Positions 46,676-60,423 of a stretch of DNA of 64,000 bases are shown piece after piece. The stretch spans positions 57,324 through 121,323 of the IMG/VR virus record IMGVR_UViG_2906610324_000001. One strand, written 5' to 3'. Source of the stretch: a virus. Lineage: Duplodnaviria; Caudoviricetes. How positions within the stretch are numbered: position 1 is the stretch's first letter; each line of letters begins with the position of its first letter. The notes beneath the pieces are model-generated. The model was given only the letters and a program-made list of their open reading frames with translations. It was not told the DNA's origin and made no database searches. The position numbers and the translations under genes are program-made.

Positions 46676-46870
46676 ATGGCCCGCACCAACACCACCACAG
46701 GACTCGAGAACCGCGCCCAGCAGAGGATTTTCTCCTCTCCGGTAGCGCTCGCCTTCGTGCGGACCGTTGTGGTTCGCCGCGGCGTGACCGAGGCCCAGGC
46801 TCGCAAGATCTACCTCGATTACCTCAACCGAGCGCAGCCGCACCGCCGCGGCGCGCGCACGGCTGCATGA
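46676..46870 (+). CDS. small hypothetical protein
   Basis: GAGGG SD. Confidence 0.45.
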   Translation: MARTNTTTGLENRAQQRIFSSPVALAFVRTVVVRRGVTEAQARKIYLDYLNRAQPHRRGARTAA

Positions 46871-47029
46871 CGTGAATTTCGACTACGGGATGGTCGCCCC
46901 CGCAAGGACATAAGGCGATCTCGCTGACCGGTACCGGTCTCTTTCAGTGGAGCGGCAAACGGTGGTTTCAGGCAGCGATAGGTTTTCTATTGGCCGGGCT
47001 CGTCCCGGCCGTTTGTGAATTTCTCTCTC

Positions 47030-47104
47030 GCCGGCGTGGCGCAGCGGTAGCGCAGCGCACTCGTAACGCGAAGGTCGCCAGTTCAAATCTGGCCGCCGGC
47101 ACCA
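47030..47104 (+). tRNA. tRNA-Thr(CGT)
   Basis: cloverleaf, CCA end. Confidence 0.85.
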
Positions 47105-47105
47105 C

Positions 47106-47182
47106 GCCCGCATAGCTCAGCGGTAGCAGCGCTCGCATTGTAGGCGAGAGGTCGCAGGTTCGATCCCATGCTGCGGGCACCA
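47106..47182 (+). tRNA. tRNA-Thr(TGT)
   Basis: cloverleaf, loop AT-TGT-AG, CCA end. Confidence 0.8.
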
Positions 47183-47283
47183 ACGATCCGGGCTTGTTCT
47201 GATCAGCCAAGAGGTGCTAGTTTTCGTCACGCCGATGGCTGCAACCCACCGGCGTGACGCCTCAGTTGTCAAAGCCAGTTCGT

Positions 47284-47397
47284 TTAGAACACGTACTGGC
47301 AGGCCGTGATCCAGGTAAGCACGATGACGAGGACCAAGACGGCATTGCCGGTTCTACCGGCGATGCCGATCGTGACTCGCACTTCTTCGGCGCGCAT
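47284..47397 (-). CDS. 37-aa hydrophobic peptide
   Basis: strong AAAGGAG SD; one TM-like segment. Confidence 0.45.
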   Translation of the reverse strand: MRAEEVRVTIGIAGRTGNAVLVLVIVLTWITACQYVF

Positions 47398-47786
47398 TTT
47401 TTTCTCCTTTCTCCTGCCAAAAAACCACCAATGGCTTGGCTCGTGTTGTCTAGCACGGGGGAAGCTACGAGGCACGCGCTTCCAAGGGCGTAAATCACAC
47501 CGGGATGCGCATAGCACGAAGGCGTGACTGCGCGAGCGGCGCCCCCGTAAAGTCGGCGCCATGGCGGGCCAAACGAGTCATTCCTGCGTGAAAACGGGAT
47601 GTTGTCGATGCCTACACGAACGCCGATGCGCATTGATCGCTGGGCTTGCATCATAGCGGGTGGACATAATGTTGGGATTCTTGCCGGTATAGAGCGGCGG
47701 CGTCACCCAGGCGTCGACGTTTGTCGGTGCCGTGACGCTCGCGGCAGGTGCAAACGCCAGAAGCCTACGGTGGCACCACCATCATT

Positions 47787-47870
47787 GCGGATGTGGCGGA
47801 ATTTGGTAGACGCGCCGGTCTCAGGAACCGGTTCTTCGGAGTGTGGGTTCGATCCCCTCCGTCCGCACCA
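47787..47870 (+). tRNA. tRNA-Leu(CAG)
   Basis: type II cloverleaf, CCA end. Confidence 0.88.
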
Positions 47871-47892
47871 GCTATTTCAATTTGAAACAACT

Positions 47893-47972
47893 GCCCCGGT
47901 GGCGGAACATGGTAGATGCCGCTGCCTCGAAAGCAGTTTCTGTTGCCGGTTCGGGCCCGGCCTGGGGCACCA
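47893..47972 (+). tRNA. Leu-like tRNA body with CGA anticodon (atypical or pseudo)
   Basis: GGCGGAA..GGTAGA D-arm, A73, loop CT-CGA-AA, degenerate T-loop. Confidence 0.6.
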
Positions 47973-48176
47973 TCAATGCTGCGCCGGTCCGGCAAGCGTT
48001 GGGCGCGCACCGAGACGATAGAACGTTAGGGATGCAGGTTGCCAAGTGTTCGGATCCAAAGCGTTGCGGAGCGCCTGCTGAGCGCCGTGAAGCGCAGCGC
48101 GGTCTTCCTCGGCCAAACGATCGTCCATGAGAATGGCCTCAATCTCGAGGAGCTCGGCCGCGATCCGGTCTTGCAT
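47973..48176 (-). CDS. hypothetical protein filling a tRNA spacer
   Basis: stop abuts CCA; SD lies in the antisense of the next tRNA. Confidence 0.55.
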   Translation of the reverse strand: MQDRIAAELLEIEAILMDDRLAEEDRAALHGAQQALRNALDPNTWQPASLTFYRLGARPTLAGPAQH

Positions 48177-48182
48177 GTCTTC

Positions 48183-48258
48183 GCTCCCGTCGCCAAGCGG
48201 TTAAGGCATCGGTTTTACACACCGACATGCGCTCGTTCGATCCGAGCCGGGAGCACCA
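48183..48258 (+). tRNA. tRNA-Val(TAC)
   Basis: cloverleaf, CCA end. Confidence 0.85.
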
Positions 48259-48262
48259 ATTC

Positions 48263-48337
48263 GCGTCCGTAGCTCAGTGGTAGAGCGCGATCTCGACATG
48301 GTCGATGCCGGTGGTTCAATTCCATCCGGACGCACCA
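48263..48337 (+). tRNA. tRNA-Val(GAC)
   Basis: cloverleaf, C33, CCA end. Confidence 0.85.
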
Positions 48338-48345
48338 ACTTCAAC

Positions 48346-48419
48346 GCTCTTGTAGCACAGTGGCAGTGCGACCGCTCGATAAGCGGTTGACGCAGGTTCG
48401 ATTCCTGACTGGAGCACCA
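48346..48419 (+). tRNA. tRNA-Ile(GAT)
   Basis: cloverleaf, C33, CCA end. Confidence 0.8.
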
Positions 48420-48437
48420 ACAACGAGGACGCCGATC

Positions 48438-48635
48438 ATGGTTGTTCTGACGACGCTGATGCAGCGCATGCCGCCGGCGATCCTGCCGCCGGGTGTGCAC
48501 GTCCTGTCGGCCGAGAGCCAGGCCGCGCTCGCGCGCGCCAAGGCGGAGGGCGACGCCATCGCAGCGCGCCACGCGAAACCGGAGCGGCTCGCCGCCGCAA
48601 CCATCGGGAAGATGGATCCGGAGCGTTATACCTGA
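48438..48635 (+). CDS. small hypothetical protein
   Basis: GAGGA SD; 3' end overlaps a tRNA-like gene. Confidence 0.35.
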   Translation: MVVLTTLMQRMPPAILPPGVHVLSAESQAALARAKAEGDAIAARHAKPERLAAATIGKMDPERYT

Positions 48636-48696
48636 CTGGAGATGGAGCGGCCTTTTAACCCGTGCGCAAGTGGTTCGAAACCACCCGGATCCTCCA
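48614..48696 (+). tRNA. atypical tRNA-Lys(TTT)
   Basis: GGATCCG acceptor, CT-TTT-AA loop, T-arm, CCA; aberrant D region. Confidence 0.55.
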
Positions 48697-48701
48697 TCAA
48701 C

Positions 48702-48787
48702 GGACCTGTGCCCCCAGCGGCTAAGGGAGCGGATTCTTAGTCCGTCGGCGCAAGCCATCGTCGGTTCGAGTCCGACCAGGTCCTCCA
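48702..48787 (+). tRNA. tRNA-Lys(CTT) with a long variable arm
   Basis: loop TT-CTT-AG; GGC-GCAA-GCC variable arm; U73. Confidence 0.75.
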
Positions 48788-48853
48788 ATTCGGCGGTGGA
48801 TGACTGCCAACTACCTTACCGATCCACCGCTCGACCGCGGGTAGACTCCCGGC

Positions 48854-49414
48854 ATGAAATACACGAGGGAAGTATTGGCGGCAGCAGCCGCAGATAGCCT
48901 GTCGACCGCCGATGTTTTGCGCCGACTTGATTTGAGGCTCGCGGGTGGAACGTATACCCACATTGGCAGCCTGCTAAAGCGATTTGAGATCGACACGTCG
49001 CACTTTTTAGGCAAGACGCGAAACCGGGGGCCAAATCGCAAAGGAGGGACTGCTAAGCGACCATGGCAGCAAATTCTTGTTCGGCGCCCGACGGGTTCTC
49101 AACGAGTCGAGGCCTTCGTTCTTCGGCGAGCGTTGATCGAGTCCGGTCGCCCATACGTTTGCGCAGAATGCGAGATCCCACCAATCTGGCGCGAGAAGGA
49201 ATTGAGGCTCGAGGTTGAGCACTGCGACGGTGATTTTTGCAACAACGAGGCGGAAAACCTGAAATTCTTGTGCCCGAACTGCCACCAAGTATTCGGGTGG
49301 CGGAAATGTCCGGTCTTGCGAGGTGTGACCAGCACCGCGGAATATGAACGCGCCGCTCGAAAACGGCGTCGACAAAGAGCGCTTGTGGCGGAACAGGTAG
49401 ACGCATCAGTCTGA
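48854..49414 (+). CDS. HNH endonuclease (homing-like)
   Basis: C..C, LEVEH.DGD..NN..ENL.FLCPNCH; C-terminus runs into a tRNA. Confidence 0.8.
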   Translation: MKYTREVLAAAAADSLSTADVLRRLDLRLAGGTYTHIGSLLKRFEIDTSHFLGKTRNRGPNRKGGTAKRPWQQILVRRPTGSQRVEAFVLRRALIESGRPYVCAECEIPPIWREKELRLEVEHCDGDFCNNEAENLKFLCPNCHQVFGWRKCPVLRGVTSTAEYERAARKRRRQRALVAEQVDASV

Positions 49415-49461
49415 GAGGCTGACGGGAAACCATGCCGATTCGATTCCGGCCGGCCGCACCA
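49379..49461 (+). tRNA. tRNA-Leu(GAG), degenerate
   Basis: Leu D-arm, CT-GAG-AG loop; acceptor mismatches. Confidence 0.65.
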
Positions 49462-49462
49462 T

Positions 49463-49960
49463 CTACTCGTCTTCAAAAGTATAATGGCCTTTTTCGATCT
49501 TGGCTTTGGCTTTCTCGAAGTATGACTCAGGTGCAGTATAGGCTTCAGCGTTTGCCGCCTGGAGCCGGTCTCTGGCCGCTCTGTATTCATCTTCGAACCA
49601 AGCAATCTCCTTGCTTGGCCCTATGCGACCTAGATCCTTGAAGATGATCTCGAGATTTTTGTACTCCCCTGCGAGCCGGGTAGCGGTAGGTATGTGCTCA
49701 TCGAGCTTGAGTGCGGTATAAACGGCAGGGATTAGACCTGCCGCGAGTGCTAGTATCGCCGTCGCCACGCGGAAACGATTGTCGGTGCTAATGAGATCCC
49801 AGCCGGCTATGGCGCCAAAAACGATCGGCGTGATAACAAAGGCGATACGTAGCTTCCTTAGAGTTCGCACCCAGATAAACAGCATGGTCGATGTGTAGAG
49901 GCACCGTTCCCACTGTTGCTTGCACTGTGCGCGTAGAGCTTCTGCCGGTGTTTCTATCAA
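49463..49960 (-). CDS. SLATT-like 2TM effector (CBASS)
   Basis: two TM helices, H...A..Y..L, C-terminal KAK.KIE.G.YTF; TTG start overlaps the CD-NTase stop. Confidence 0.75.
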   Translation of the reverse strand: MIETPAEALRAQCKQQWERCLYTSTMLFIWVRTLRKLRIAFVITPIVFGAIAGWDLISTDNRFRVATAILALAAGLIPAVYTALKLDEHIPTATRLAGEYKNLEIIFKDLGRIGPSKEIAWFEDEYRAARDRLQAANAEAYTAPESYFEKAKAKIEKGHYTFEDE

Positions 49961-50826
49961 ATCGGAATGTCCGTTCCAAAGATGCGCTGCCACTCAGTGC
50001 CAGCTAGCGAAGGATATTTTTCTTCGTCGTTCGTTGCTTCGACGGCATTTGAATAGGCAGTCTCTGCTCTTGATTTCCATGCGCTGCCAAGCGCCATAAT
50101 TTCGTAGGTGCCAGGAGCATACAAATAACCGTCGGCACAGTTGATCAGGTAAGCGAAAAAGTCACGACACATCCAATCGTAGTAGGTTTTGCTCTTTCCG
50201 GCATACGACCATTGCTTAAGGAAATCGATGGCGAGCAACTCCAAATAAAATGATTTGAGCGGGACGTTGCAGTTTGCCTGCCACGCCTTGAGCATCCTGA
50301 CCAGATCTCGAGTATTGTTGTTGGTTGCGGTGTTCGAACTGGAAACAGCGGCTGCCTCGGCGTCAGGATCGACGGTTTTGTAGAAACCACCAGCACTGGT
50401 ATAGGGCACCCCGTACTGGCCGCTCTGCAGTTCGAAAGCAGGTAAGAGCTCTATTGCGTAAGTGCCGAAGGGAACCTTCACGACGGGGCCGTCGCCCCGA
50501 ATGTCGGTCTTTTGGAACGAGCCCAGCAATGCGTTCTTGATCTCCTGCAACAATTGGGATTGCTTGTTTCCGGTGCGCTGCTCGAAGCGTTGATACACCT
50601 CATTTGACAGCTTGAAGAGAACATCCACGTCGCGCGGCGGGCGCGTGCGAGTGCCTTTCCCCCAGGACCCAACATAGATGCTGTTCGCGGTGTCTGAGGT
50701 TGAATTGTAGTACTTGCCGTTCAGCACTTTGCACACGCTACCGCGCTTGGTAGCGCCGTCGAGCTTCTGCGCATCCGTAAGACTTATGTTGGTAAGAAAC
50801 TGATCGAAGCGATCGTGAACTGACAT
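49957..50826 (-). CDS. SMODS/CD-NTase nucleotidyltransferase (CBASS cyclase)
   Basis: GSWGKGT..RPPRDVDVLF, ELLPAF, LKAW, KSFYLE. Confidence 0.9.
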   Translation of the reverse strand: MSVHDRFDQFLTNISLTDAQKLDGATKRGSVCKVLNGKYYNSTSDTANSIYVGSWGKGTRTRPPRDVDVLFKLSNEVYQRFEQRTGNKQSQLLQEIKNALLGSFQKTDIRGDGPVVKVPFGTYAIELLPAFELQSGQYGVPYTSAGGFYKTVDPDAEAAAVSSSNTATNNNTRDLVRMLKAWQANCNVPLKSFYLELLAIDFLKQWSYAGKSKTYYDWMCRDFFAYLINCADGYLYAPGTYEIMALGSAWKSRAETAYSNAVEATNDEEKYPSLAGTEWQRIFGTDIPI

Positions 50827-50910
50827 GAAAACCGTGGACAGGATGAAAAACGGCGCGCGAACCTTACCCGTTCAGAAGCTTGGTTGCAAAGCAGCAAATC
50901 AGCAATCTCT

Positions 50911-50985
50911 GCCCATGTCCCCATCTGGCGAAGGGACCGGACTGTCGATCCGGGAGGGCGAGTTCGATCCTCGCCATGGGCGCCA
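50911..50985 (+). tRNA. tRNA-Asp(GTC)
   Basis: cloverleaf, G73, CCA end. Confidence 0.85.
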
Positions 50986-50988
50986 TAA

Positions 50989-51063
50989 CGGAGTGTAGCT
51001 CAGCCCGGCCAGAGCACCGCGTTCGGGACACGGGGGCCGCAGGTTCAAGTCACACTCCGACCA
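50989..51063 (+). tRNA. tRNA-Pro(CGG), T-stem partly deleted
   Basis: CGGAGTG acceptor; 3' half of T-stem missing. Confidence 0.6.
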
Positions 51064-51067
51064 ATTC

Positions 51068-51142
51068 GGGCGCATAGCTCAGCGGTAGAGCCGGCCGGTC
51101 ATAACGGCTTGGTCGTCAGTTCGAATCCGGCTGCGCCTACCA
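51068..51142 (+). tRNA. tRNA(CAT), Ile2 or Met
   Basis: cloverleaf, loop GT-CAT-AA. Confidence 0.8.
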
Positions 51143-51205
51143 CGACAAAAGATCCGAATTTCTTCTTGGAAACGAGAAACCGCAACGCAATCAATGGAGG
51201 TCGCT

Positions 51206-51742
51206 ATGTTCGCCGCAAATCCGGCGCTGGTGTTGAACGCCGACTTCCAGCCGCTGTCCTATTTCCCGCTGTCGCTGTTCGGTTGGGAAATCGCAGTCAA
51301 GGCCGTCGTGAAAGGATCTCACGTCGTGGTCGCGGAATACGACCAGGTCATCCGCAGCCCGTCGACCGAGATGCGGCTGCCGTCGGTGATCGCGCTGCGC
51401 GACTATGTTCGGCCCCCGACGCGGGTCGCCTTCACGCGGTTCAACGTCTTCCTCCGCGATCGCTTTCGTTGCCAGTATTGCGGCGAGCAGCACCTGCGGG
51501 GCGAGCTGACGTTCGACCATGTCGTGCCTCGCGCGGATGGGGGCGAGACGTCCTGGACGAACATCGTCGCGGCGTGCAGCCCCTGCAACACGCGGAAGGA
51601 CCGCTTCCACCTGAAGCCGTTGCGGGCGCCGTTCGAGCCGTCGCAGCACGATCTGATGGCTGCTCAGCGGCTGTTCCCGCCGAACTTCATGCACGAGACC
51701 TGGCAGGACTTCCTGTACTGGGACGTCGAGCTCGAGAAGTAA
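51206..51742 (+). CDS. HNH endonuclease (McrA-like family)
   Basis: LVLNADF.PL, RD.F.CQYCG, TFDHVVPR..GG..SW.N.V.AC..CN..K. Confidence 0.9.
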   Translation: MFAANPALVLNADFQPLSYFPLSLFGWEIAVKAVVKGSHVVVAEYDQVIRSPSTEMRLPSVIALRDYVRPPTRVAFTRFNVFLRDRFRCQYCGEQHLRGELTFDHVVPRADGGETSWTNIVAACSPCNTRKDRFHLKPLRAPFEPSQHDLMAAQRLFPPNFMHETWQDFLYWDVELEK

Positions 51743-51745
51743 TTG

Positions 51746-51779
51746 CCGGCGGCGGCAAGCCTGCCGCCGGTTCGTTTTT
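51746..51779 (+). terminator. hairpin/terminator after HNH gene
   Basis: CCGGCGGCGG..CTGCCGCCGG followed by T run. Confidence 0.45.
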
Positions 51780-51855
51780 CCCCTTAGCTCAGTGGAGTGA
51801 GAGCGCGGCCGTCCGAAGGCCGAGGCCGCTGGTTCGAGTCCAGCAGGGGAAGCCA
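51778..51855 (+). tRNA. tRNA-Arg(CCG)
   Basis: cloverleaf, CCA end. Confidence 0.85.
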
Positions 51856-51941
51856 GATGTCCGAAAAGCGTCGAGACCGCCACTGCCGGTGGACTTGAAG
51901 GAGCCGACGCCTGCCGCGCCAGCGGATAGGACTGCGTGATT

Positions 51942-52029
51942 GGTTGGGTGGCCGAGTGGTTTAAGGCAGCAGTCTTGAAAACTGAAGTGCCGCAAGGCAC
52001 CGTGGGTTCGAATCCTACCCCAACCGCCA
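51942..52029 (+). tRNA. tRNA-Ser(TGA)
   Basis: type II cloverleaf, G73. Confidence 0.92.
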
Positions 52030-52045
52030 ACTTCAGAGATTGCCA

Positions 52046-52516
52046 ATGAAGCGCTGGCTATGCACATTGATGTTCGTCGCGCTCGTAGCCGTCTTTGTTT
52101 GCGGGACCTCATCGGCACAGACGCCATTCGACTTGGCTGAGGAACGTATCGTCGATTGCGCAGCCCATTCCAATCTGCATCCGCCGTACGGTGGTGACAA
52201 CGATGTGATGCAGGTTTGCAGTCGCGAGATCGAGGCCTACCAGCGAGCTTGCGTGGCGCGCGTCGGTGCGGTGCAGGACGCTGAAATAGATTGCGGTATG
52301 GCCGGCGCTGCTTCGGCGCAAAGGATGCAGAACCGCGATCCCGTCGACGTGCAATTCGTCAACTGTCTTAGGGGCAAGGGCAGGGGAATAGAGGCACTGA
52401 GCGTATGTCGCGTGGAGAGACGCGCGTTTGAAGCGAACTGCCAAAAGCGGAAGGACGTCAGCCAATGCCAAAAAGACGCCGAATTTCTAGCGGGTCTCGG
52501 CCTTCGTGAAAGATAA
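52046..52516 (+). CDS. secreted Cys-rich protein
   Basis: signal peptide ..SSA-Q; 8 Cys in the mature part. Confidence 0.6.
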   Translation: MKRWLCTLMFVALVAVFVCGTSSAQTPFDLAEERIVDCAAHSNLHPPYGGDNDVMQVCSREIEAYQRACVARVGAVQDAEIDCGMAGAASAQRMQNRDPVDVQFVNCLRGKGRGIEALSVCRVERRAFEANCQKRKDVSQCQKDAEFLAGLGLRER

Positions 52517-52625
52517 TCCTGACTCAGTTACGCCACGAACTGAATTTAGTCGTGGGACTAACGATCGCGCCTGGCCGGATGTACGCCGGCGCCGCCCAGG
52601 GAGTTTGTAGCCCGGGCACGATCAT

Positions 52626-52701
52626 TGCGGGGTGGAGCAGCGGCAGCTCGTCTGGCTCATAACCAGAAGGTCGGGGGTTCGAGTCCCTTCCACCGCAACC
52701 A
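52626..52701 (+). tRNA. tRNA-fMet-like (CAT)
   Basis: GCGGGGTGGAGCAG..GCTCG initiator-type D-arm. Confidence 0.8.
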
Positions 52702-52703
52702 AT

Positions 52704-52816
52704 TCTGCTGCCGGGTGTCGCGCCCGCGCGCTAGGCCCGCAACCTCGGATTAAGTTCGGAGGCACTGGGAAGGGACAGTCGGCATCGGCATCGGCTTCGG
52801 CCCGGCAGCAGATCCA
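52704..52816 (+). ncRNA. unclassified structured RNA with a 12-bp terminal stem and NCCA end
   Basis: TCTGCTGCCGGG/CCCGGCAGCAGA followed by TCCA, between two tRNAs. Confidence 0.5.
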
Positions 52817-52820
52817 TTGC

Positions 52821-52908
52821 GCGCAGACACTGTGGCACGTGGCGAGCCCAACGCGCTGTAAACGCGCCGGTTAAACCTGTGGCGGTTCGACTCCGTCTCT
52901 GCGCACCA
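52821..52908 (+). tRNA. atypical tRNA-Tyr(GTA)
   Basis: CT-GTA-AA loop, variable arm, T-arm, CCA; aberrant D region. Confidence 0.65.
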
Positions 52909-52914
52909 ATTCAA

Positions 52915-52988
52915 GCGGGTAAATGATTACGGTAGTCGGTCGGTGTGCCACACCGGCAGCCCGGGTTCGACTCCCGGTGCCCGCACCA
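52915..52988 (+). tRNA. tRNA-Gly(GCC)
   Basis: cloverleaf, CCA end. Confidence 0.8.
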
Positions 52989-53026
52989 AATCGGCGGTTT
53001 GCGAAATTGCGCAAACTCGCAACTTC

Positions 53027-53101
53027 GCCCGGATAGCTCAGCGGTAGAGCGGCACGTTGAAGGCGTGCGCGTCAGTGGTTCGATTCCATTTCCGGGCACC
53101 A
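53027..53101 (+). tRNA. tRNA-Phe(GAA)
   Basis: cloverleaf, CCA end. Confidence 0.88.
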
Positions 53102-53140
53102 AATCCTCCGAGGTACGTCAGTGTACCTCAACGTACATTC

Positions 53141-53213
53141 GGGGCACGCGCTGGGTCCGCGGGCATGCTTTGCAAGCAAGCTGAGCTCGGTTCGATTCCG
53201 AGGTGCTCCACCA
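53141..53213 (+). tRNA. tRNA-Ala(TGC), short D-arm
   Basis: G3.U70, TT-TGC-AA loop, CCA end. Confidence 0.7.
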
Positions 53214-53224
53214 TGATAGCCCAT

Positions 53225-54490
53225 TTAGGCGATAGACTTCAGATGAGTCGATGATCGTAGGAAGAACAAAAAGTACGGTTCGATGATATCGAGCACGTCC
53301 TCGTCCCATTCGATAACCGTCGCTTCTTGGACAAGCTTTGCGAGCTTGTCCATCTGCTCTAAGGCTTGGCTGACGCTCGAGCCGGATGGACGATCCTCGA
53401 GGCAAACCGCAGCGGTGCGCTTGAGTAGGTCGTCGTATTTGAACGCAAGCTGCGGCGGATCGGCTTTCATTGCGAGCAAAACGCAGCGGTAGACGTCGCC
53501 CTTACTGCCATCGTTAAATAGATACACTTTTCGATCCATGCCGCGCTGTCTCGGGCCAGAATGAAGTTGAGATAACATGGAGGAGAAGTTGGTGAGGGTC
53601 GATGTGCGCTCAAACACCTGCTGCATCGTCACGAAATCGGGATCAATCCTGACCTGGTCTGGCAGCGCGTCCCTTATAGCGTTCTCGAAACAAAAATTCA
53701 GACAGATTGCTTGCATGAGCTGCGGTGAGCCAAAGGCTTCGGCAACGAGTTGCCTCACTACATTCGGTGAGAGATCAACGTTCAACTCGCGGAAGCCCAA
53801 GTACGCAATCTGCGAAAGTTCGTCATCACTCCAATAGCCACTGTCGATGCCCGTTACACGCCCCCTAAGTTCAGGGTTGCTCCTGACCACGTCATCTCGG
53901 CGATGGGGGACGGACGCCGTGCATATACGGATGCCGGCCTCAGCTGCCGCTTTGATTTGCCTTCCAATTTCCTCCTGCACCTCTTTTGGGATGTAGTGAA
54001 AGTCATCCACGAAGACCACAAAGCTGCTGTGCGCAATCTCCTTAATCACCTGCTGCAAGCCGTCGCTCTTGTAGTTGCGAGTGACGTCAGCCGTTCTATC
54101 GTGGCCCACGGACGCCTTTCCGCCGGCCTTTGCTTCCGCCAGAAATGGAACGCCTGCTTTGCCTTCGGCTACAGCCTCAACGCCAAACTTCGTTGTGGAA
54201 CCAACTTTTTCAGACTTGGAGTGCGGTGCGTCCATCCATTGCAATACGTTCGACCAAAGCTCGTCTGCACTGCGGATGGTTGAGCCGGTCAGTGGGATTA
54301 GATTGTCTGGTTCGATGATCTTGCTTACCAGCACGGTCTTTCCCGATTTGGACGGCCCCGATATCGAGACAATCATTTTAGGGACTTCAAATGCTTCCCT
54401 GAGCCGGTCCTCCAGCTTGTGCACCGGTCGTTGGACGTAGGTGAACGTCGGTACATCGTTCGGAGTGAAGACCTCTGTTGGCTTGGCCAT
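53225..54490 (-). CDS. AAA/STAND-like P-loop ATPase, orphan
   Basis: GPSKSGKT Walker A, VFVDDFH Walker B, GSPQLMQ; lower GC. Confidence 0.85.
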   Translation of the reverse strand: MAKPTEVFTPNDVPTFTYVQRPVHKLEDRLREAFEVPKMIVSISGPSKSGKTVLVSKIIEPDNLIPLTGSTIRSADELWSNVLQWMDAPHSKSEKVGSTTKFGVEAVAEGKAGVPFLAEAKAGGKASVGHDRTADVTRNYKSDGLQQVIKEIAHSSFVVFVDDFHYIPKEVQEEIGRQIKAAAEAGIRICTASVPHRRDDVVRSNPELRGRVTGIDSGYWSDDELSQIAYLGFRELNVDLSPNVVRQLVAEAFGSPQLMQAICLNFCFENAIRDALPDQVRIDPDFVTMQQVFERTSTLTNFSSMLSQLHSGPRQRGMDRKVYLFNDGSKGDVYRCVLLAMKADPPQLAFKYDDLLKRTAAVCLEDRPSGSSVSQALEQMDKLAKLVQEATVIEWDEDVLDIIEPYFLFFLRSSTHLKSIA

Positions 54491-54630
54491 GGCTATTTTC
54501 CTGGGGCGATCATCGTGTCGCCGACGACCCTGCCGGCGGGACACTGATCACGCGCGAAGGCATCCAACCATAGGGTGTGGGTCAGGGTCCATCATCCTTA
54601 TTGATCGGTGGAAAACCTCCGCCGCAGCCT

Positions 54631-54704
54631 TTCCCGATCCGCTAACGGTAAGCGGCCCGACTGTTAATCGGTCCATCCAGGTTCGAGTCCTGGTCGGGGA
54701 GCCA
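54631..54704 (+). tRNA. tRNA-Asn(GTT)
   Basis: cloverleaf, G73. Confidence 0.8.
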
Positions 54705-54708
54705 AACT

Positions 54709-55056
54709 TTAGTTTGGAAGAGGAAGAGCGATATCCGGAAATTTCCTACTGACGATCTCGCAAAGTCTGAGGAAGTGATCCCGGTGCAGCTTTCTGCCGA
54801 TGGGCTCGTTGCCCTTAAAAAGTGCCGCCGTGCCGAGATGAAGCTTCAGGCCGATGTGGCGATCTCGGCCGCCGACGCAATGGGCATGAGGTCGTGAGGG
54901 GAAGGGGTCAACGTCGTACTTGTGAACGCGCCATACCTCTCCGCCGACACGGTAATCCTTCTGCATGAGTTCTCGACCCAGACCATCAACGATCCGGATG
55001 TCGCCGAGGTCGACGCAGATATAGTCGTCAGCTTCATCAACAATTTCGTCCGACAT
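54709..55056 (-). CDS. hypothetical protein with H..D.DPFPS.PHAH motif
   Basis: AGGAGG SD; fills a tRNA spacer. Confidence 0.65.
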   Translation of the reverse strand: MSDEIVDEADDYICVDLGDIRIVDGLGRELMQKDYRVGGEVWRVHKYDVDPFPSRPHAHCVGGRDRHIGLKLHLGTAALFKGNEPIGRKLHRDHFLRLCEIVSRKFPDIALPLPN

Positions 55057-55094
55057 GCGGGGCCTCCTACAGGCGCGCGAATGTATGGCCGAAT

Positions 55095-55169
55095 GCTGCC
55101 ATCGTCTAGCGGCCAGGATGACCGCCTCTCGAGCGGTCGACACGGGTTCGAGTCCCGTTGGCAGCGCCA
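55095..55169 (+). tRNA. tRNA-Glu(CTC)
   Basis: cloverleaf. Confidence 0.88.
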
Positions 55170-55172
55170 ATT

Positions 55173-55250
55173 CGACCCGTAGCTCAGTGGAGAAAGAGCG
55201 TCCTGCTACGAACGGGAAGGGCGGGGGTTCGAGTCCCTCCGGGTCGTCCA
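55173..55250 (+). tRNA. tRNA-Arg(ACG)
   Basis: cloverleaf. Confidence 0.85.
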
Positions 55251-55254
55251 TCAT

Positions 55255-55330
55255 CAGGGCGTAGGGTAGCGGCTAACCCGCCGGTTTTGGGTACCGGATC
55301 CCGTCGGTTCGAGTCCGACCGCCTTGACCA
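55255..55330 (+). tRNA. tRNA-Pro(TGG)
   Basis: cloverleaf, C1-G72. Confidence 0.85.
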
Positions 55331-55337
55331 CCATCAT

Positions 55338-55413
55338 CGCCTCTTAGCTCAGATGGAAGAGCACCGCGCTCTGAACGCGGAGGTCCGCGGTTCGAGGCCG
55401 CGAGAGGCAGCCA
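55338..55413 (+). tRNA. tRNA-Gln(CTG)
   Basis: cloverleaf. Confidence 0.82.
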
Positions 55414-55414
55414 T

Positions 55415-55489
55415 GGTGCGGTGGCGAAATGGGAACGCTGCGGTCTGCAAAACCGCCACGAGCCGGTTCGATCCCGGCCCGCACATCCA
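55415..55489 (+). tRNA. tRNA-Cys(GCA)
   Basis: cloverleaf, U73. Confidence 0.82.
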
Positions 55490-55535
55490 TAGAAAAAGCG
55501 CCAACGCCGAAGATTATTTTTCAGATCTGTTGCAA

Positions 55536-55611
55536 GCGCTCGTGGGCCAACTGGACGGCCAGCGGAATTCTACTCCGCCGCATGCGGGTTCGAGTCCTGC
55601 CGAGCGCGCCA
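55536..55611 (+). tRNA. tRNA-Arg(TCT)
   Basis: cloverleaf, loop AT-TCT-AC. Confidence 0.82.
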
Positions 55612-55720
55612 GCTAACCATCCGGGAGAACGACCTGTGATCAGTCTCGATCTCAGGCTGTTTTTCGACTAAAAGATCGCCTTTATCGCAGGCTCCTGTTC
55701 GAGCCGACTGGGGCGACCCC

Positions 55721-58192
55721 ATGACGTATTCGATTGACGCAGCATTCGAGCGGCTGAATGCCCTCGAACCGGAGCTTCGAGATGGGCTGAAAGCCGGGCA
55801 AAACGAGGCCGATACCCGCCTAAAAGTGCTGGATCGCGTCCTATTCGAGGTCCTGGATTGGAAGCACGCCCCTGTGTTGGTGGAGCCGCACACCGAATCG
55901 GGCTTCATCGACTACCTGCTGACCATTGGCGAGCGTCGAGGCGTCATGGTCATTGAAGCAAAGCGCGTAGGGCTGCTTGCGCCTGCAACGGTATCGAAGG
56001 AGCTAATGACGGTGGCTCTAAATGGCCAGGTGGTTAAGCCGCTGATGGCCGGCATTAAGCAGGCCATGAATTATGCGTTGGAAAACGGCGTAGCCACAGG
56101 CGTGGTTACCGATGGAAACACTTGGTTGTTCTTTAAGGCCTCTCGGACTGACGGCAAGAAACCGCTGGAAGGCAAGGGCCTGCTCTTCCCGAGCCTCGAA
56201 ACGGTCTTTGCCAACTTCGCGAAGTTCGCCGAAATGCTCGGACCCATACCGATTGTCGAGCGGCGGCATCTCGCGCACCTCAACGAGGCGGAGGGCCTGA
56301 CGGTCACTGACGCGGAGCAGCAGTACTTCGTACTAAATCCGACGGATGCCCAGATGCGCAAGCGGGACCCATTGGCGCAGGACGCAGCGCTGTTGTTCTC
56401 GCAATTCTTCTCGAGGCTGTCCGATGAGCAAGACCGCGAGATGCTACGGGATTGCTTCGTCGAAACCAACGAAAGCCGGAAAGCCGATATCGAGTTAGAA
56501 AAAATCATTCAGCGTGTGCTGAATACTATCGCGCCCATCTCGACTAGCGGGGGCGGTGCGTTGCAGGCCGAGCTAGAACAGACCATCGCTTCAAAACGGT
56601 CGGAAACTGTCCTGCTAATTGGCAACAAGGGTGCGGGCAAATCGACTTTCATCGACCGCTTTTTCGAACAGGTGTTACCGCGGGCGACCCGCGAGAAATG
56701 CGTTCTCGCGCGTGTCGATCTGCAAGACTATCACGGAGATCCCAAGGGCATCGTGAGTTGGATCATTCTGCAACTCCGCGAGAGGCTGGAAGCGGAAGTG
56801 TTCACCAGCAACCCGCCGACCTATGACGAACTGCAGGGCATGAACTTCCAGGAGTATCAACGCTGGATGGTCGGCTCTCGCAAACATCTCTACGAAACCA
56901 ACAAGATCGAGTTCAAGAACCAGTTCGGCATCCACCTTGAGGATCGCCGTGAAAGAAATCCTGACGAATGGGTGCGCAAGCTCTTGGATTGGGCGTCGCG
57001 CGGTCACAACAAGCTGCCTTGCCTGGTATTCGATAATACCGATCAGTTCCCGACTGACGTACAAGATGCCGTCTATCAGATGGCGCATTCTCTTGAAGGC
57101 GCGGCACCGGTGTTCAACGTAGTACCGATCACCGACCGCACGGTGTGGCGGCTGTCGAAGGCGGGAGCGTTGGCAAGTTATTCTGCCAAAAGTTTTTACC
57201 TGCCAGTACCCGATGCCAAGGAAATCATCTCTCGCCGCGTCGACTTCCTGAAAATCAAAGTCAAGGCCGAACCGAAAGCGGCAAAGGCCTATTTCTCGAA
57301 CAAGGGATTCCAAGTCGAGGTCAACGACCTGGCAATGCTCGCTGAAGCTGTGGGCAAGGTATTTGTCGAGAACGACTACGTGTCGGGGCTCATCGGCCGC
57401 CTCGGTAACTTCGACATCCGGCGTATGCTCAAGCTGGCGGAGAGGATCTTCCTGTCGCCTGAATTGAAGATTGATGACATCATCAAGTCAAAATTCGGCG
57501 GCCCAAGCGTCACCACTGACCAATACCGGACTCACCGCGCCCTTATCAAAGGTGAATATGACCGGTTCAGCGAGACCGAGAACGAGTTCATCTCGAACTT
57601 ATTCTACACCAATCCACAGAAGCCGGAATCGCCGCTGTTGGCTTTCTATCTGCTCTGGCTATTGCGACAGCGCCTCAATTCCGTCCGTGACGAGAGCGTT
57701 GAAAGCAAACACTGGCTAGTCTCTGAGCTGTGCCAACTTTTCGAGGGATGCGGCGTTGCCGAAGAACTGGTGATGCAGACCGTCGCCCGGCTCTATGACC
57801 GGAGACTTGTGGAAGCCCTCGATCCGAACCTCAAGGTGATTGGCCTCGCGGACAAGATAGCCATCAAGGAGTGCGGTCTAGCTCATCTTGAAATGGCCAT
57901 GCTATCGGAAGTGTTCACGGAGCAGATGGGCTTGGTGACCGGGGTGAACGAGCTATTTGCTCGGGATGAAATGCGCAAGCAGATGCAAGATCATCACATG
58001 CGTGAGGTCCGAGAGACCTTCATCCGTTACTTGCTTAAGATCGACGCTGGCCGCATGAAGATTCCGGGCCTTCCAGCCTATTCTCAAATGGGTAAGGCGC
58101 GGGCGCAGATCGAGAGCCTGCTTCCTCGTGGCCCGCGCATAGCTAAGAACGGACCAGCGAAGAAGGCGCTGTCCAAGCGCACGACCTTGTGA
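55721..58192 (+). CDS. PD-(D/E)xK (HsdR-N-like) nuclease fused to a P-loop NTPase; candidate defence protein
   Basis: NEADTR, IDY..IEAKR, QA..YA, VVTDG..W; GNKGAGKST; VFDNTD. Confidence 0.8.
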   Translation: MTYSIDAAFERLNALEPELRDGLKAGQNEADTRLKVLDRVLFEVLDWKHAPVLVEPHTESGFIDYLLTIGERRGVMVIEAKRVGLLAPATVSKELMTVALNGQVVKPLMAGIKQAMNYALENGVATGVVTDGNTWLFFKASRTDGKKPLEGKGLLFPSLETVFANFAKFAEMLGPIPIVERRHLAHLNEAEGLTVTDAEQQYFVLNPTDAQMRKRDPLAQDAALLFSQFFSRLSDEQDREMLRDCFVETNESRKADIELEKIIQRVLNTIAPISTSGGGALQAELEQTIASKRSETVLLIGNKGAGKSTFIDRFFEQVLPRATREKCVLARVDLQDYHGDPKGIVSWIILQLRERLEAEVFTSNPPTYDELQGMNFQEYQRWMVGSRKHLYETNKIEFKNQFGIHLEDRRERNPDEWVRKLLDWASRGHNKLPCLVFDNTDQFPTDVQDAVYQMAHSLEGAAPVFNVVPITDRTVWRLSKAGALASYSAKSFYLPVPDAKEIISRRVDFLKIKVKAEPKAAKAYFSNKGFQVEVNDLAMLAEAVGKVFVENDYVSGLIGRLGNFDIRRMLKLAERIFLSPELKIDDIIKSKFGGPSVTTDQYRTHRALIKGEYDRFSETENEFISNLFYTNPQKPESPLLAFYLLWLLRQRLNSVRDESVESKHWLVSELCQLFEGCGVAEELVMQTVARLYDRRLVEALDPNLKVIGLADKIAIKECGLAHLEMAMLSEVFTEQMGLVTGVNELFARDEMRKQMQDHHMREVRETFIRYLLKIDAGRMKIPGLPAYSQMGKARAQIESLLPRGPRIAKNGPAKKALSKRTTL

Positions 58193-58313
58193 TTACCGAG
58201 CTGATCGTACTCGATACCCCGACTCCGCGAGTTCGTTGAATGCATAATCGTCGGGCGCTGTCCGGTCCAGCGGCACCAACGACCATGCAGGATTTCGATG
58301 ATCGTTTCCTATT

Positions 58314-58400
58314 GGAGAGATGGCCGAGCGGCAAGGCACCTCACTGCTAACGAGGCGTGACCTTCGGGTCTGGCGAGTTCGACTCTCGCTCTCTCCGCCA
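58314..58400 (+). tRNA. tRNA-Ser(GCT)
   Basis: type II cloverleaf. Confidence 0.88.
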
Positions 58401-58409
58401 CAACAACGC

Positions 58410-58483
58410 GCGGGCTTGGGCCATAGGCTGGTCACCTGGTTTCCACCCAGGCTAAGTCGGTTCGAGTCCGGCAGCCCGCACCA
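58410..58483 (+). tRNA. tRNA-Gly(TCC)
   Basis: cloverleaf, atypical D-arm. Confidence 0.75.
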
Positions 58484-58741
58484 TCACTTTTTCTGCCCGG
58501 ACGCTGCTGCCTCCCGGATGGCGCCGACGACAAATTGATAACCTTCGATCGTGACATCAGCAGCATCAGGCAGTTGCTCAAGGCCGGCGAGGCCGAACTG
58601 CCATGCGACTTCAGCTTCCGCAAGAAGCTCAGGATGCGATCTCACGACCGATTGAGCAAACATCAGCAATGCGTGGATTTGGCCTGTCGTAAATAGCACC
58701 GAGTGCGTCATCCGCTCCGGCGGCATCAATCTCTCAACCAT
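58484..58741 (-). CDS. hypothetical protein filling a tRNA spacer
   Basis: stop abuts CCA. Confidence 0.55.
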   Translation of the reverse strand: MVERLMPPERMTHSVLFTTGQIHALLMFAQSVVRSHPELLAEAEVAWQFGLAGLEQLPDAADVTIEGYQFVVGAIREAAASGQKK

Positions 58742-58746
58742 TCATG

Positions 58747-58821
58747 GCTCCCTTCGTCTACCGGTCAGGATATCACCCTTTCAAGGTGAGGAAACGGGTT
58801 CGACTCCCGTAGGGAGCACCA
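58747..58821 (+). tRNA. tRNA-Glu(TTC)
   Basis: cloverleaf. Confidence 0.9.
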
Positions 58822-58826
58822 TTCAC

Positions 58827-58903
58827 GGGCGCGTAGCCAAGCTGGCAAAGGCATCGGATTTTGATTCCGACATCCGCAGGTTCGATCCCTGCCGCGCCTG
58901 CCA
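58827..58903 (+). tRNA. tRNA-Gln(TTG)
   Basis: cloverleaf. Confidence 0.88.
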
Positions 58904-59149
58904 TCACCTGACGTCCTCAATCCGTTCGTGCCGCGTACGTACCGACCAGGAATGCATGCACCGGCCGCACCTCGCAGCGAAATGGACTCGGTTCGGATCT
59001 CCGCGGTCGGTTCGTTTGCCGTCCCGGTCATATGTGGGTCCGTGCCAGCCCATGCAGGTCTCTTCACCTCGCCGGATTTGAACCTCGCAGTCGCGACGAG
59101 GGCACGGGCTTGTTACCGCCTTGGCTATTTCAGCCTCAATTATCGACAT
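58904..59149 (-). CDS. small zinc-ribbon-like protein filling a tRNA spacer
   Basis: CP...C and C..C motifs; abuts tRNAs on both sides. Confidence 0.6.
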   Translation of the reverse strand: MSIIEAEIAKAVTSPCPRRDCEVQIRRGEETCMGWHGPTYDRDGKRTDRGDPNRVHFAARCGRCMHSWSVRTRHERIEDVR

Positions 59150-59225
59150 CGCTCGGCCTCCGTTGGGTAAGGTGCTGTCTCTCATAAGGACGGACTGGCG
59201 GGTTCAAGCCCCGCACGAGCGACCA
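59150..59225 (+). tRNA. atypical tRNA(CAT)
   Basis: CT-CAT-AA loop, T-arm, CCA; odd D-arm. Confidence 0.65.
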
Positions 59226-59231
59226 ATTGCC

Positions 59232-59597
59232 TTAAGTCGACGACGGTTCGCCGGAACGTGGCCGTTTCCTCCACCAGTCCGCAGGCTTGATGAGCCCGTC
59301 CGGCGTTACGGTCAAGCCGAGCCTAATCAGGTGAAGGCGGCTGTCCGATGCTTCTTCGCTCATGACCAACTCGACCGCGCCGGGCTCGAGCCCAGGATCC
59401 TCGACAATCCTGATGCCCATAAAGTTCGGCGCCGGCACGGAGCTTCCAACCATGTGAGCGTCTCGGAAAACGCGCGCCATATCGCTGGTGGAAGCGAGAA
59501 TGAGCTTGGGGATGTCCGGGTGGGTGCGTCTCGTCAAACGGGTGAGGGCGTAGAGACCATCGCTGTTCAGATCAACTCGCAATGAAGTCGTGTTCAT
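59232..59597 (-). CDS. hypothetical protein
   Basis: ATGA-coupled to the upstream gene. Confidence 0.55.
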   Translation of the reverse strand: MNTTSLRVDLNSDGLYALTRLTRRTHPDIPKLILASTSDMARVFRDAHMVGSSVPAPNFMGIRIVEDPGLEPGAVELVMSEEASDSRLHLIRLGLTVTPDGLIKPADWWRKRPRSGEPSST

Positions 59598-59782
59598 GGC
59601 AACACCGTCTCCCTGGTCTCAATTTCGGCGACGACATAGTTCGAGTTGCGCCGGCCGAACGTGTCGACGGTCTGCAACCTTACGTGCAGGCCCTCGGCGC
59701 CGGTGTCGTCGAGCGCGCTGTTGAGCGCCGTCACGGCGTCCATCACCTTCCGCGATGCCGCTTTCTGTGCCGGTGTTGCCAT
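59594..59782 (-). CDS. hypothetical protein
   Basis: AAAGGA SD. Confidence 0.55.
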   Translation of the reverse strand: MATPAQKAASRKVMDAVTALNSALDDTGAEGLHVRLQTVDTFGRRNSNYVVAEIETRETVLP

Positions 59783-59796
59783 CTCAATCTTCCTTT

Positions 59797-59871
59797 GCCG
59801 CTTTCGTTCAATGGTAGGACGCTGGGTTGTGGACCCGGTAACGAGAGGTTCGATTCCTCCAAGCGGTGCCA
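59797..59871 (+). tRNA. tRNA-His(GTG)
   Basis: cloverleaf; no encoded G-1. Confidence 0.82.
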
Positions 59872-59876
59872 ATTTT

Positions 59877-59950
59877 GGGAGTGTCGTCTAGTGGTAAGGC
59901 ACCGGCTTCCAACACCGGTTACGTGGGTTCGATTCCTACCGCTCCTGCCA
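59877..59950 (+). tRNA. tRNA-Trp(CCA)
   Basis: cloverleaf, G73. Confidence 0.82.
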
Positions 59951-60409: not shown

Positions 60410-60423
60410 GGCATCCTCACGCG

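Follow-up and report, generated by a model that had tools for sequence, protein, structure and literature searches.

The locus analysed here is an array of tRNA genes in a stretch of prophage DNA of 64,000 nucleotides (hereafter the window), which makes up the last 64 kb (positions 57,324 to 121,323) of the 121,323-bp IMG/VR virus record IMGVR_UViG_2906610324_000001, and several described systems resemble it in part. The tRNA region of phage T5 is reportedly a same-strand cluster with interspersed open reading frames (ORFs); the ORFs interspersed in the T4 and T5 regions run with the tRNAs and are not known to be defence systems. In mitochondria, tRNA punctuation is a genome layout in which protein genes abut same-strand tRNAs that are excised by RNase P and RNase Z, and in Listeria the excludons yield long antisense RNAs by which the overlapped genes are repressed. 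Inside the tRNA cluster of phage T4 lies SegB, a homing endonuclease that drives the preferential inheritance of that region and promotes its recombination (PMC2330249). The hotspots of P2 and P4 prophages hold, at a fixed position, different anti-phage systems in each member of the group (bioRxiv 10.1101/2021.01.21.427644).

The array in the window combines a phage tRNA cluster carrying homing-type endonucleases with a prophage defence hotspot. We consider it probable that the locus is a hotspot for accessory genes and anti-phage defence, with tRNAs as its scaffold and deletion as the cause of its compactness. Comparison with relatives gives the hotspot solid support; regulation by the antisense geometry is a weaker matter, the geometry being simply compatible with it.

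ARAGORN at default settings finds 30 tRNA genes within 12.9 kb (47030-59950), all on the + strand and 28 of them confirmed by Rfam, and relaxed ARAGORN together with alignment to relatives adds four tRNA-like genes, bringing the total to about 34. The locus is thus a one-stranded phage tRNA array of 30 canonical genes plus up to four others. In window positions, the members are as follows.

47030..47182, +, tRNA-Thr(CGU) and tRNA-Thr(UGU) (ARAGORN, Rfam)
47787..47972, +, tRNA-Leu(CAG) and tRNA-Ser(CGA) (ARAGORN, Rfam)
48183..48419, +, tRNA-Val(UAC), tRNA-Val(GAC) and tRNA-Ile(GAU) (ARAGORN, Rfam)
48615-48697, +, doubtful, degenerate Lys(UUU)-like element (relaxed ARAGORN, alignment)
48702-48787, +, tRNA-Lys(CUU) (ARAGORN)
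49379..49461, +, tRNA-Leu(GAG) (ARAGORN, Rfam)
50911..51142, +, tRNA-Asp, degenerate tRNA-Pro(CGG) and tRNA-Met(CAU) (ARAGORN, Rfam, alignment)
51778..52029, +, tRNA-Arg(CCG) and tRNA-Ser(UGA) (ARAGORN, Rfam)
52626..52701, +, tRNA-Met(CAU) (ARAGORN, Rfam)
52821..53213, +, tRNA-Tyr(GUA), tRNA-Gly(GCC), tRNA-Phe and tRNA-Ala (ARAGORN; Tyr by relaxed ARAGORN and alignment)
54631..54704, +, tRNA-Asn (ARAGORN, Rfam)
55095..55611, +, tRNA-Glu(CUC), Arg(ACG), Pro(UGG), Gln(CUG), Cys and Arg(UCU) (ARAGORN, Rfam)
58314..58483, +, tRNA-Ser(GCU) and tRNA-Gly(UCC) (ARAGORN, Rfam)
58747..58903, +, tRNA-Glu(UUC) and tRNA-Gln(UUG) (ARAGORN, Rfam)
59150..59225, +, tRNA-Met(CAU) with an unusual D arm (relaxed ARAGORN at 59148-59224, alignment)
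59797..59950, +, tRNA-His and tRNA-Trp, end of the array (ARAGORN, Rfam)

With the flanking HD phosphohydrolase gene, the flanking SRAP-like gene and the internal HNH gene as anchors, homologous arrays were found in five close proviruses (R1 to R4 and L253) and in five distant relatives (L258, L166, L257, L259 and L167), among which L166 comes from a Bradyrhizobium genome and L167 from a Propylenella metagenome-assembled genome. The SRAP gene is absent from G001 and G002, both of which IMG/VR classifies as provirus. A comparison of homologous arrays had been proposed as a check on the idea of conserved tRNA order with variable spacer cargo, and it comes out in its favour: the order of the tRNAs is the same in the window and in all ten relatives, and the cargo of the spacers is almost wholly different; of the 15 protein genes that the window has in its array, 10 lack a counterpart in R1 to R4. 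The arrays span 3.4 kb (17 tRNAs), 4.1 kb (30 tRNAs), 5.2 kb (31 tRNAs) and up to 13.3 kb, and the compact ones hold essentially only the HNH gene, the flanks being co-oriented with the tRNAs on both sides in L167 and at least on the right in L257 and L259. A compact module of about 30-37 tRNAs and one HNH gene is common to all relatives, and the most parsimonious account takes it as the ancestral state, into which cargo moved later in the Bradyrhizobium-type lineage. The HNH gene at 51206-51742 is the sole protein gene kept inside every array, with identities of 82-92% in R1 to R4 and 63-66% in the distant arrays.

The tRNAs themselves are not constant in sequence. Along the array, their identity between the window and a relative alternates between about 65% and 96-100%; these flips are a recombination mosaic on a fine scale, with the tRNAs being swapped as alleles. 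One slot makes this plain: the tRNA-Tyr(GUA) at 52821-52908, which neither default ARAGORN nor Rfam at E<=1 detects and which the program gave a wrong label, is of a sequence type common to R2 only (98%), and R1, R3 and R4 have an unrelated Tyr allele at the same position, which is an allelic replacement of a tRNA at a fixed site. Thus, the earlier idea of tRNAs as conserved scaffolds for swappable cassettes stands as regards order and cargo, while conservation does not extend to the tRNA sequences. The tRNA-Pro(CGG) at 50989-51060 has an intact acceptor stem and anticodon and a broken T stem (28.5 bits in Rfam against a threshold of 29), is intact in all four of R1 to R4, and is probably a decaying gene in the window. 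Every relative keeps the tRNA-Met(CAU) with the odd D arm (59150-59225), and in the relatives ARAGORN calls it without relaxed thresholds. The relatives also have a tRNA-Thr(GGU) in the spacer between Thr and Leu, which the window lacks.

The composition of the array, 55-60% GC against 61-66% elsewhere, is foreign and was counted in favour of a hotspot. Related phages or prophages would trade cassettes through homologous recombination or gene conversion, with the tRNAs as short conserved flanks, and the resident HNH enzymes may promote this exchange by making double-strand breaks. Insertion of the integrase type was considered as well and is unsupported, given the lack of flanking repeats and att-like fragments. 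A near-identity search of the array among deposited phages returned matches to single tRNAs only, and searches with the capsid and HNH proteins yielded no cultured phage with this array; Rhizobium phage RHph_Y65 has an HNH homologue (52%) that does not lie in a tRNA cluster.

Since both strands of DNA with 60% GC are full of open frames, each candidate ORF was checked individually. The protein genes of the array are listed below.

47284..47397, -, possible 37-aa hydrophobic peptide, unvalidated (strong Shine-Dalgarno sequence (SD) AAAGGAG, spacing 6)
47973..48176, -, 67-aa cargo gene (homologues)
48438..48635, +, 65-aa ORF (coding score; kept in R1-R3)
48854..49414, +, HNH homing-endonuclease-like gene (PADLOC HEase E 6e-11)
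49463..49993, -, two-transmembrane (2TM) effector of a cyclic-oligonucleotide-based anti-phage signalling system (CBASS) (PADLOC Effector 2TM E 1.5e-51)
49957..50826, -, CBASS cyclase, a cGAS/DncV-like nucleotidyltransferase (CD-NTase, SMODS) (Pfam SMODS E 1e-29; PADLOC cyclase E 8e-118)
51206..51742, +, HNH endonuclease (Pfam HNH E 2e-14)
52046..52516, +, 156-aa Cys-rich secreted protein with a predicted N-terminal signal peptide (translation)
53225..54544, -, PDC-S59-like AAA-type ATPase, single-gene defence candidate (PADLOC PDC-S59 E 5e-32)
54709..55056, -, 115-aa cargo gene (173 homologues)
55721..58192, +, 823-aa P-loop NTPase (AAA_16, STAND-like) (Pfam AAA_16 E 1e-8; phrog_14719 E 4e-166)
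58484..58741, -, 85-aa cargo gene that fills its spacer (homologues)
58904..59149, -, 81-aa gene (78% identical to R1; codon-position bias)
59232..59597, -, 121-aa cargo gene (four homologues)
59594..59782, -, 62-aa gene (kept in R1 and R2; codon-position bias)

Ten of these 15 genes run opposite to the tRNAs. The statement that the spacers are filled by antisense genes was overstated, since + strand genes occur in 5 of the 13 long spacers, and the 604-nt spacer between Thr and Leu (47183-47786) is mostly without assignment, about 390 nt of it (47398-47786) having no supported gene on either strand. The claim that the cargo includes a CBASS-like pair and an orphan ATPase is, in turn, backed by profile matches to CD-NTase, 2TM effector and PDC-S59. 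The CBASS pair takes up 1,364 of the 1,449 nt of its spacer, with 84 nt of non-coding DNA upstream of the CD-NTase and no room for a Cap2/Cap3 or HORMA/TRIP13 accessory gene; a cyclase with an adjacent 2TM effector is the gene layout of type I CBASS, to which the pair is assigned from its genes.

In the relatives, the same slots carry other systems. R1 has an AbiJ-like gene on the + strand, and its AIPR/AbiU-like gene is divided between two consecutive ORFs (L003:6648-7841 (+) and L003:8203-9249 (+)), which match the N- and C-terminal parts of the family and represent either a split pseudogene or a two-gene form. R2 carries an OMP beta-barrel protein, a zinc-ribbon protein and PDC-M48B with a partner gene. 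In R3, a second CBASS, consisting of a cyclase and a patatin effector, occupies the Ala-to-Asn slot, where the window has its ATPase, and both R3 and R4 have a Ro60/TROVE-vWA gene on the + strand in the Pro-to-Gln slot, in which L253 carries a 540-aa + strand ORF that is probably Ro60 as well. The Ro60 genes (L005:7138-8490 (-) and L006:11863-13521 (-)) are preceded, on the tRNA strand, by matches to YrlA-like Y RNA with its tRNA-like domain (L005:8771-8830 (-) and L006:13800-13864 (-); E 1e-7 and 6e-7, below the gathering score), so that a predicted Ro60-Y RNA module is embedded in the phage tRNA array of R3 and R4. The systems recognised by PADLOC and Pfam thus comprise CBASS twice, PDC-S59, PDC-M48B, AbiJ-like and AbiU/AIPR-like genes. 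Conserved flanks with variable content and a cargo predicted to be enriched in defence systems are the two marks of a prophage defence hotspot, and the array, as judged from its genes, bears both.

The cargo is also portable, homologues of four of its proteins being found away from tRNA arrays. Homologues of the 67-aa protein (65-75% identity, in Bradyrhizobium) adjoin no tRNAs, those of the 85-aa protein (62-80% identity) stand in non-tRNA contexts, and all seven contexts checked for the two proteins are free of tRNAs; relatives of the ATPase (39-60% identity) occur outside arrays in two viral contigs, of which one has no tRNA and the other just one. Because homologues occur outside tRNA arrays, the cargo is not tied to tRNAs. 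The 115-aa protein belongs to a large uncharacterised family of 173 homologues of about equal length, and the 121-aa protein has four homologues (39-56% identity), although no relatives were found through it among viral contigs. For the two remaining small genes, substitutions fall by codon position as 11/5/30 (81-aa gene, against R1) and 12/4/20 (62-aa gene, R1 and R2). The 62-aa gene overlaps the 121-aa gene by ATGA, and its SD, AAAGGAAG, lies within the spacer and not in a tRNA.

The junctions between the cargo and the tRNAs are tight. Eight minus-strand stop codons had been placed 0-11 nt from a tRNA CCA end, and seven of them hold, as follows (stop or CCA position on either side of the gap).

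47972/47973, gap 0 nt, 67-aa gene and tRNA-Ser
49461/49463, gap 1 nt, 2TM effector and tRNA-Leu
53213/53225, gap 11 nt, ATPase and tRNA-Ala
54704/54709, gap 4 nt, 115-aa gene and tRNA-Asn
58483/58484, gap 0 nt, 85-aa gene and tRNA-Gly
58903/58904, gap 0 nt, 81-aa gene and tRNA-Gln
59225/59232, gap 6 nt, 121-aa gene and tRNA-Met

The eighth (59950/59954) had to be given up: position 59954 ends a 39-codon in-frame tail, without a start codon, past the TAG of the minus-strand ORF 60074-60571. This tail reads as a plausible coiled-coil-like sequence, its TGA lying 3 nt from the CCA of tRNA-Trp, and the in-frame TAG may be a recent nonsense mutation or a site of read-through. A gap of 0 nt is the tightest packing possible, because a reverse stop codon cannot overlap CCA. 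In 35 spacers of five genomes that have a minus-strand gene next to the tRNA, 14 junctions show a stop within 1 nt of the CCA, where 3.8 are expected if the non-coding slack of each spacer is split at random (P<1e-4), and the spacers with at least 20 nt of slack still show five flush stops against 0.7 expected (P about 4e-4); the flush junctions are partly common by descent, with about 10 independent ones. Four further junctions in L258, L166 and L253 have gaps of 1-2 nt. Preference for a CCA-TCA trailer was tried as the full cause of the flush stops and explains part of the effect only; a reverse-stop triplet follows CCA directly in 10 of 94 short spacers and in 14 of 74 long ones. Elsewhere in the genome, 34% of co-directional genes overlap or touch, and convergent pairs of protein genes are at least 111 nt apart. 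The zero gaps show that a cargo stop and a tRNA 3' end can adjoin with nothing functional, notably no terminator, required in between. The 67- and 85-aa proteins share the position of their C-terminus with their homologues, so that the native stop was kept and everything downstream was lost.

At the other end of the cargo, all four start codons that had been noted 0-14 nt from the 5' end of a tRNA are found as described.

48176, start of the 67-aa gene, 6 nt from tRNA-Val
58741, start of the 85-aa gene, 5 nt from tRNA-Glu
59149, start of the 81-aa gene, 0 nt from tRNA-Met
59782, start of the 62-aa gene, 14 nt from tRNA-His

Three of these genes take their SD from the complement of the tRNA, as the preliminary description had it: GGGAG occurs twice and GGAGG once, at a spacing of 6-7, each being the only SD of its gene. 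For the 67-aa gene, GGGAG is the complement of the acceptor stem of tRNA-Val; for the 85-aa gene, AAGGGAG lies inside the anti-tRNA-Glu(UUC); and for the 81-aa gene, whose ATG abuts the tRNA, GGAGG lies in the complement of the D arm of tRNA-Met. Such borrowing recurs in the relatives. Next to the tRNA-Glu(UUC) allele, three mutually unrelated proteins (85 aa in the window, 128 aa in R3 and 85 aa in R4) start 5, 4 and 3 nt away behind the same GGGAGC, and at tRNA-Met an ATG abuts the tRNA behind GAGG or GGAGG in three genomes. The 81-aa gene corresponds to the C-terminal 57% of a 143-aa gene of R1, which has an SD of its own 19 nt from the tRNA, the 5' part having been lost in the window. The recurrence is best explained by deletions that are tolerated until a chance SD-like sequence in the anti-tRNA takes over. 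In R1 (L003) and R2 (L004), the spacer between Gly(UCC) and Glu(UUC) is about 125 nt long and without a gene; it holds a conserved GC-rich hairpin followed by a T run on the minus strand, a candidate terminator for that strand ahead of the anti-tRNA-Gly.

Both kinds of junction can be accommodated by the hotspot reading. Pressure on packaging size would delete dispensable DNA down to hard limits, set at one end by the CCA of a tRNA and at the other by a start codon with a usable SD, and deletion to such limits would leave zero-gap junctions together with the occasional capture of SD-like anti-tRNA sequence. The orientation of the cargo also fits its surroundings. Phage structural genes (terminase, portal, protease, capsid, tape measure and tail) lie at 8-38 kb on the + strand of the same contig, minus-strand genes occupy 42.1-46.3 kb and the region from 60.1 kb to the window end, and the minus-strand arm resumes at the other end of the record. 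The array is thus a + strand inverted island within the minus-strand early/accessory arm of a prophage, and, since the flanking arm is minus-strand, the antisense cargo shares the strand of its surroundings and the tRNA-HNH module is the inverted element. Oriented as the arm, the cargo is probably expressed in the lysogen, from promoters of its own or by read-through across the anti-tRNAs.

The antisense layout invites a regulatory interpretation, namely that during lytic growth the + strand array transcript silences self-harmful antisense cargo by transcriptional interference or RNase III, whereas lysogeny would have the array switched off and the cargo on, in the manner of an excludon. We rate this as possible but clearly the lesser prospect, and it could hold together with the hotspot explanation. 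The 0-11 nt between minus-strand stops and tRNA 3' ends leave no room for terminators, whereas other convergent pairs are at least 111 nt apart, and filled spacers force tRNA read-through antisense across the cargo: the spacers that unrelated genes occupy completely in the window, R3 and R4 cannot all hold promoters, so that the downstream tRNAs must be read through antisense to cargo. Likewise, there is no space for a promoter ahead of the cargo genes whose starts lie 0-6 nt from a tRNA, and each strand would therefore be transcribed through the other, unless the two are used at different times; the defence cassettes themselves keep 84-204 nt upstream. Cargo of the abortive-infection type (CBASS, AbiJ-like and AbiU-like) is present, as is a possible gate before the first tRNA, where a conserved small ORF is followed by a structured leader whose terminator-like hairpin shows a compensatory change:

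46676..46870, +, 64-aa ORF with which the + strand unit begins (81-94% identical in R1-R4, substitutions mainly at codon position 3)
46871..47029, +, 159-nt leader between the 64-aa ORF and the first tRNA (conserved in 7 arrays)

The ORF matches no Pfam family and the leader no Rfam family. The leader is more conserved than the neighbouring coding DNA and ends, directly before the first tRNA, in a GC-rich terminator-like hairpin (about 46995-47013) with a U-rich tail; compensatory changes are seen at 5 of its 40 predicted pairs, including one pair of the hairpin. On the folding model, it may be an attenuator, an antitermination site or a gate for entry into the array. There is no conserved terminator after the last tRNA. 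Against silencing, about a third of the cargo slots are on the + strand, including those of the AbiJ-like gene and the STAND-like NTPase, which would be co-expressed with the tRNAs and not silenced, and the orientation of the rest merely matches the minus-strand arm, with no need for selection on antisense placement. The sigma-70 scan identified no promoter for the array.

A more far-reaching proposal takes the anti-tRNA as a universal adaptor for plug-in genes, which would offer an SD at fixed slots (tRNA-Glu(UUC) and the odd tRNA-Met) and a substitute for the 3' untranslated region (UTR), couple the cargo, abortive-infection systems included, inversely to array transcription across lysis and lysogeny, and constrain the D arm of tRNA-Met doubly, as tRNA and as SD. 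This we regard as doubtful, somewhat more so than silencing by the array transcript. Less credible again is the idea that anti-tRNA cloverleafs on a polycistronic minus-strand RNA define or protect the 3' ends of mRNAs, or are cut by RNase P or RNase Z, such that the cargo needs no 3' UTR, after the pattern of mitochondrial punctuation. The excess of flush stops over random splitting of the spacers, the confinement of zero gaps to the neighbourhood of tRNAs and the about 10 independent junctions in 8 genomes would all suit it, yet the predicted anti-tRNA folds are no more stable than those of shuffled sequence (z -0.06 to -1.3), and cutting at the anti-tRNA would remove or separate the very SDs that lie within it. 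Moreover, bacterial antisense tRNA sequences are not known to be substrates of RNase P or RNase Z, and we hold this idea to be improbable.

The reverse history, in which the minus-strand genes are original and the tRNAs were inserted into the gaps singly or in small groups, is very unlikely. The cargo is indeed oriented as the flanking arm, and a related, tRNA-free prophage region (L245) has the 67-aa gene near the same SRAP and ligase genes; however, the same tRNA order recurs in the compact, cargo-free distant arrays (L167, L257 and L259), some 30 insertions in the same order are implausible, and between close relatives it is the cargo that differs and not the tRNA set. That the antisense ORFs are chance open frames in DNA of 60% GC has next to no probability, even though overlapping ORFs abound on both strands and the frame at 47284-47397 and the tail at 59954 lack support, since family matches, outside homologues or codon-position bias rule it out for nine of the ten minus-strand genes.

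Several points weigh against the hotspot reading in its full form. Expression of the cargo in the lysogen is something that we infer, and a sigma-70 consensus scan of both strands gave no convincing promoters, its one weak match where five were expected by chance being uninformative. PDC-S59, PDC-M48 and the STAND-like NTPase are defence candidates only, named from their sequences. No cassette-flanking direct repeats, att-like tRNA fragments or recombinase were found in the array, only T-arm similarity and the one degenerate tRNA-Pro. General compaction alone leaves the confinement of zero gaps to the neighbourhood of tRNAs unexplained, and in predicted folds of the read-through RNA the SD of the Glu junction is paired in the mirror acceptor stem, which may bear on how efficient such starts are. 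Finally, the IS66 insertion, the degenerate tRNA-Pro and the in-frame TAG are signs of prophage decay, and some junctions may be neutral remnants.

The provirus status of the host phage is supported: an 8.4-Mb contig carries proteins identical to those of the window, whose nearest named homologues are from Bradyrhizobium, and the phage family would be one of large temperate siphophages of Bradyrhizobium-like hosts. The IS66-family transposase gene (DDE_Tnp_IS66, E 1e-87) at 40309-41880 (+), between the tail module and the minus-strand arm, is a sign of accumulating insertions. Inside the array, the two free-standing homing-type HNH genes encode putative nucleases, the first of which (48854-49414) is absent from R1 to R4 and overlaps tRNA-Leu(GAG) with its 3' end by 36 nt. 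After the conserved HNH gene, an 11-bp GC-rich hairpin with a T-rich tail (51745-51771, +) reaches the 5' end of tRNA-Arg(CCG) and is the only strong site resembling an intrinsic terminator inside the array. For the 156-aa secreted protein there was no family match, no homology search having been made, and PADLOC gave no match for the 823-aa NTPase.

The spacers of prophage tRNA arrays thus appear to be an unrecognised place in which to seek defence genes, as cargo of unknown function stands there beside two CBASS types, Abi-like genes and PADLOC candidates, and genes of about 75 nt appear able to serve as recombination flanks of a multi-slot cassette system. The locus also offers a natural test bed for overlapping convergent transcription of tRNA precursors and mRNAs. 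Were antisense coupling or SD capture true, a temperate phage would have a new temporal control of toxic defence genes, and the tRNA gene concerned would be an unusual one under dual coding constraints.

Full-text literature searches returned no description of a multi-slot defence hotspot that is built on an inverted array of tRNAs and shows SD capture and antisense junctions flush with the tRNAs, and the locus shares single traits with each of the systems named at the outset. With excludons, it has in common that one set of genes would be transcribed antisense through the other, the antisense RNA here being a tRNA precursor. In mitochondrial punctuation, the tRNAs are on the mRNA strand, whereas those of the array are antisense to the genes that abut them. 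The CBASS pair resembles type I systems as a two-gene operon of a cyclase followed by a 2TM effector, with strong hidden Markov model matches for both, and differs in lying inside a phage tRNA array, its signalling, effector activity and defence being putative. Like the P2/P4 hotspots and the lambdoid morons, the array is a fixed site with conserved bounds that holds different defence or lysogenic-conversion genes in each prophage; in contrast to the P2/P4 hotspots, it offers many small slots instead of one or two, bounded by tRNA genes of about 75 nt, and its cassettes are without terminators and in some cases without an SD of their own. Morons carry a promoter and a terminator each, for which the 0-11 nt and 0-6 nt left beside the tRNAs provide no space. 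The tRNA regions of T4 and T5 resemble it in layout, having a same-strand tRNA cluster with small ORFs and free-standing homing-type endonucleases in between. Nevertheless, T4 and T5 are virulent and the phage described here is temperate, SegB is a GIY-YIG nuclease and that of the array an HNH enzyme, and, unlike the co-directional ORFs of T4 and T5, most of the cargo here is antisense to the tRNAs and flush with their 3' ends.

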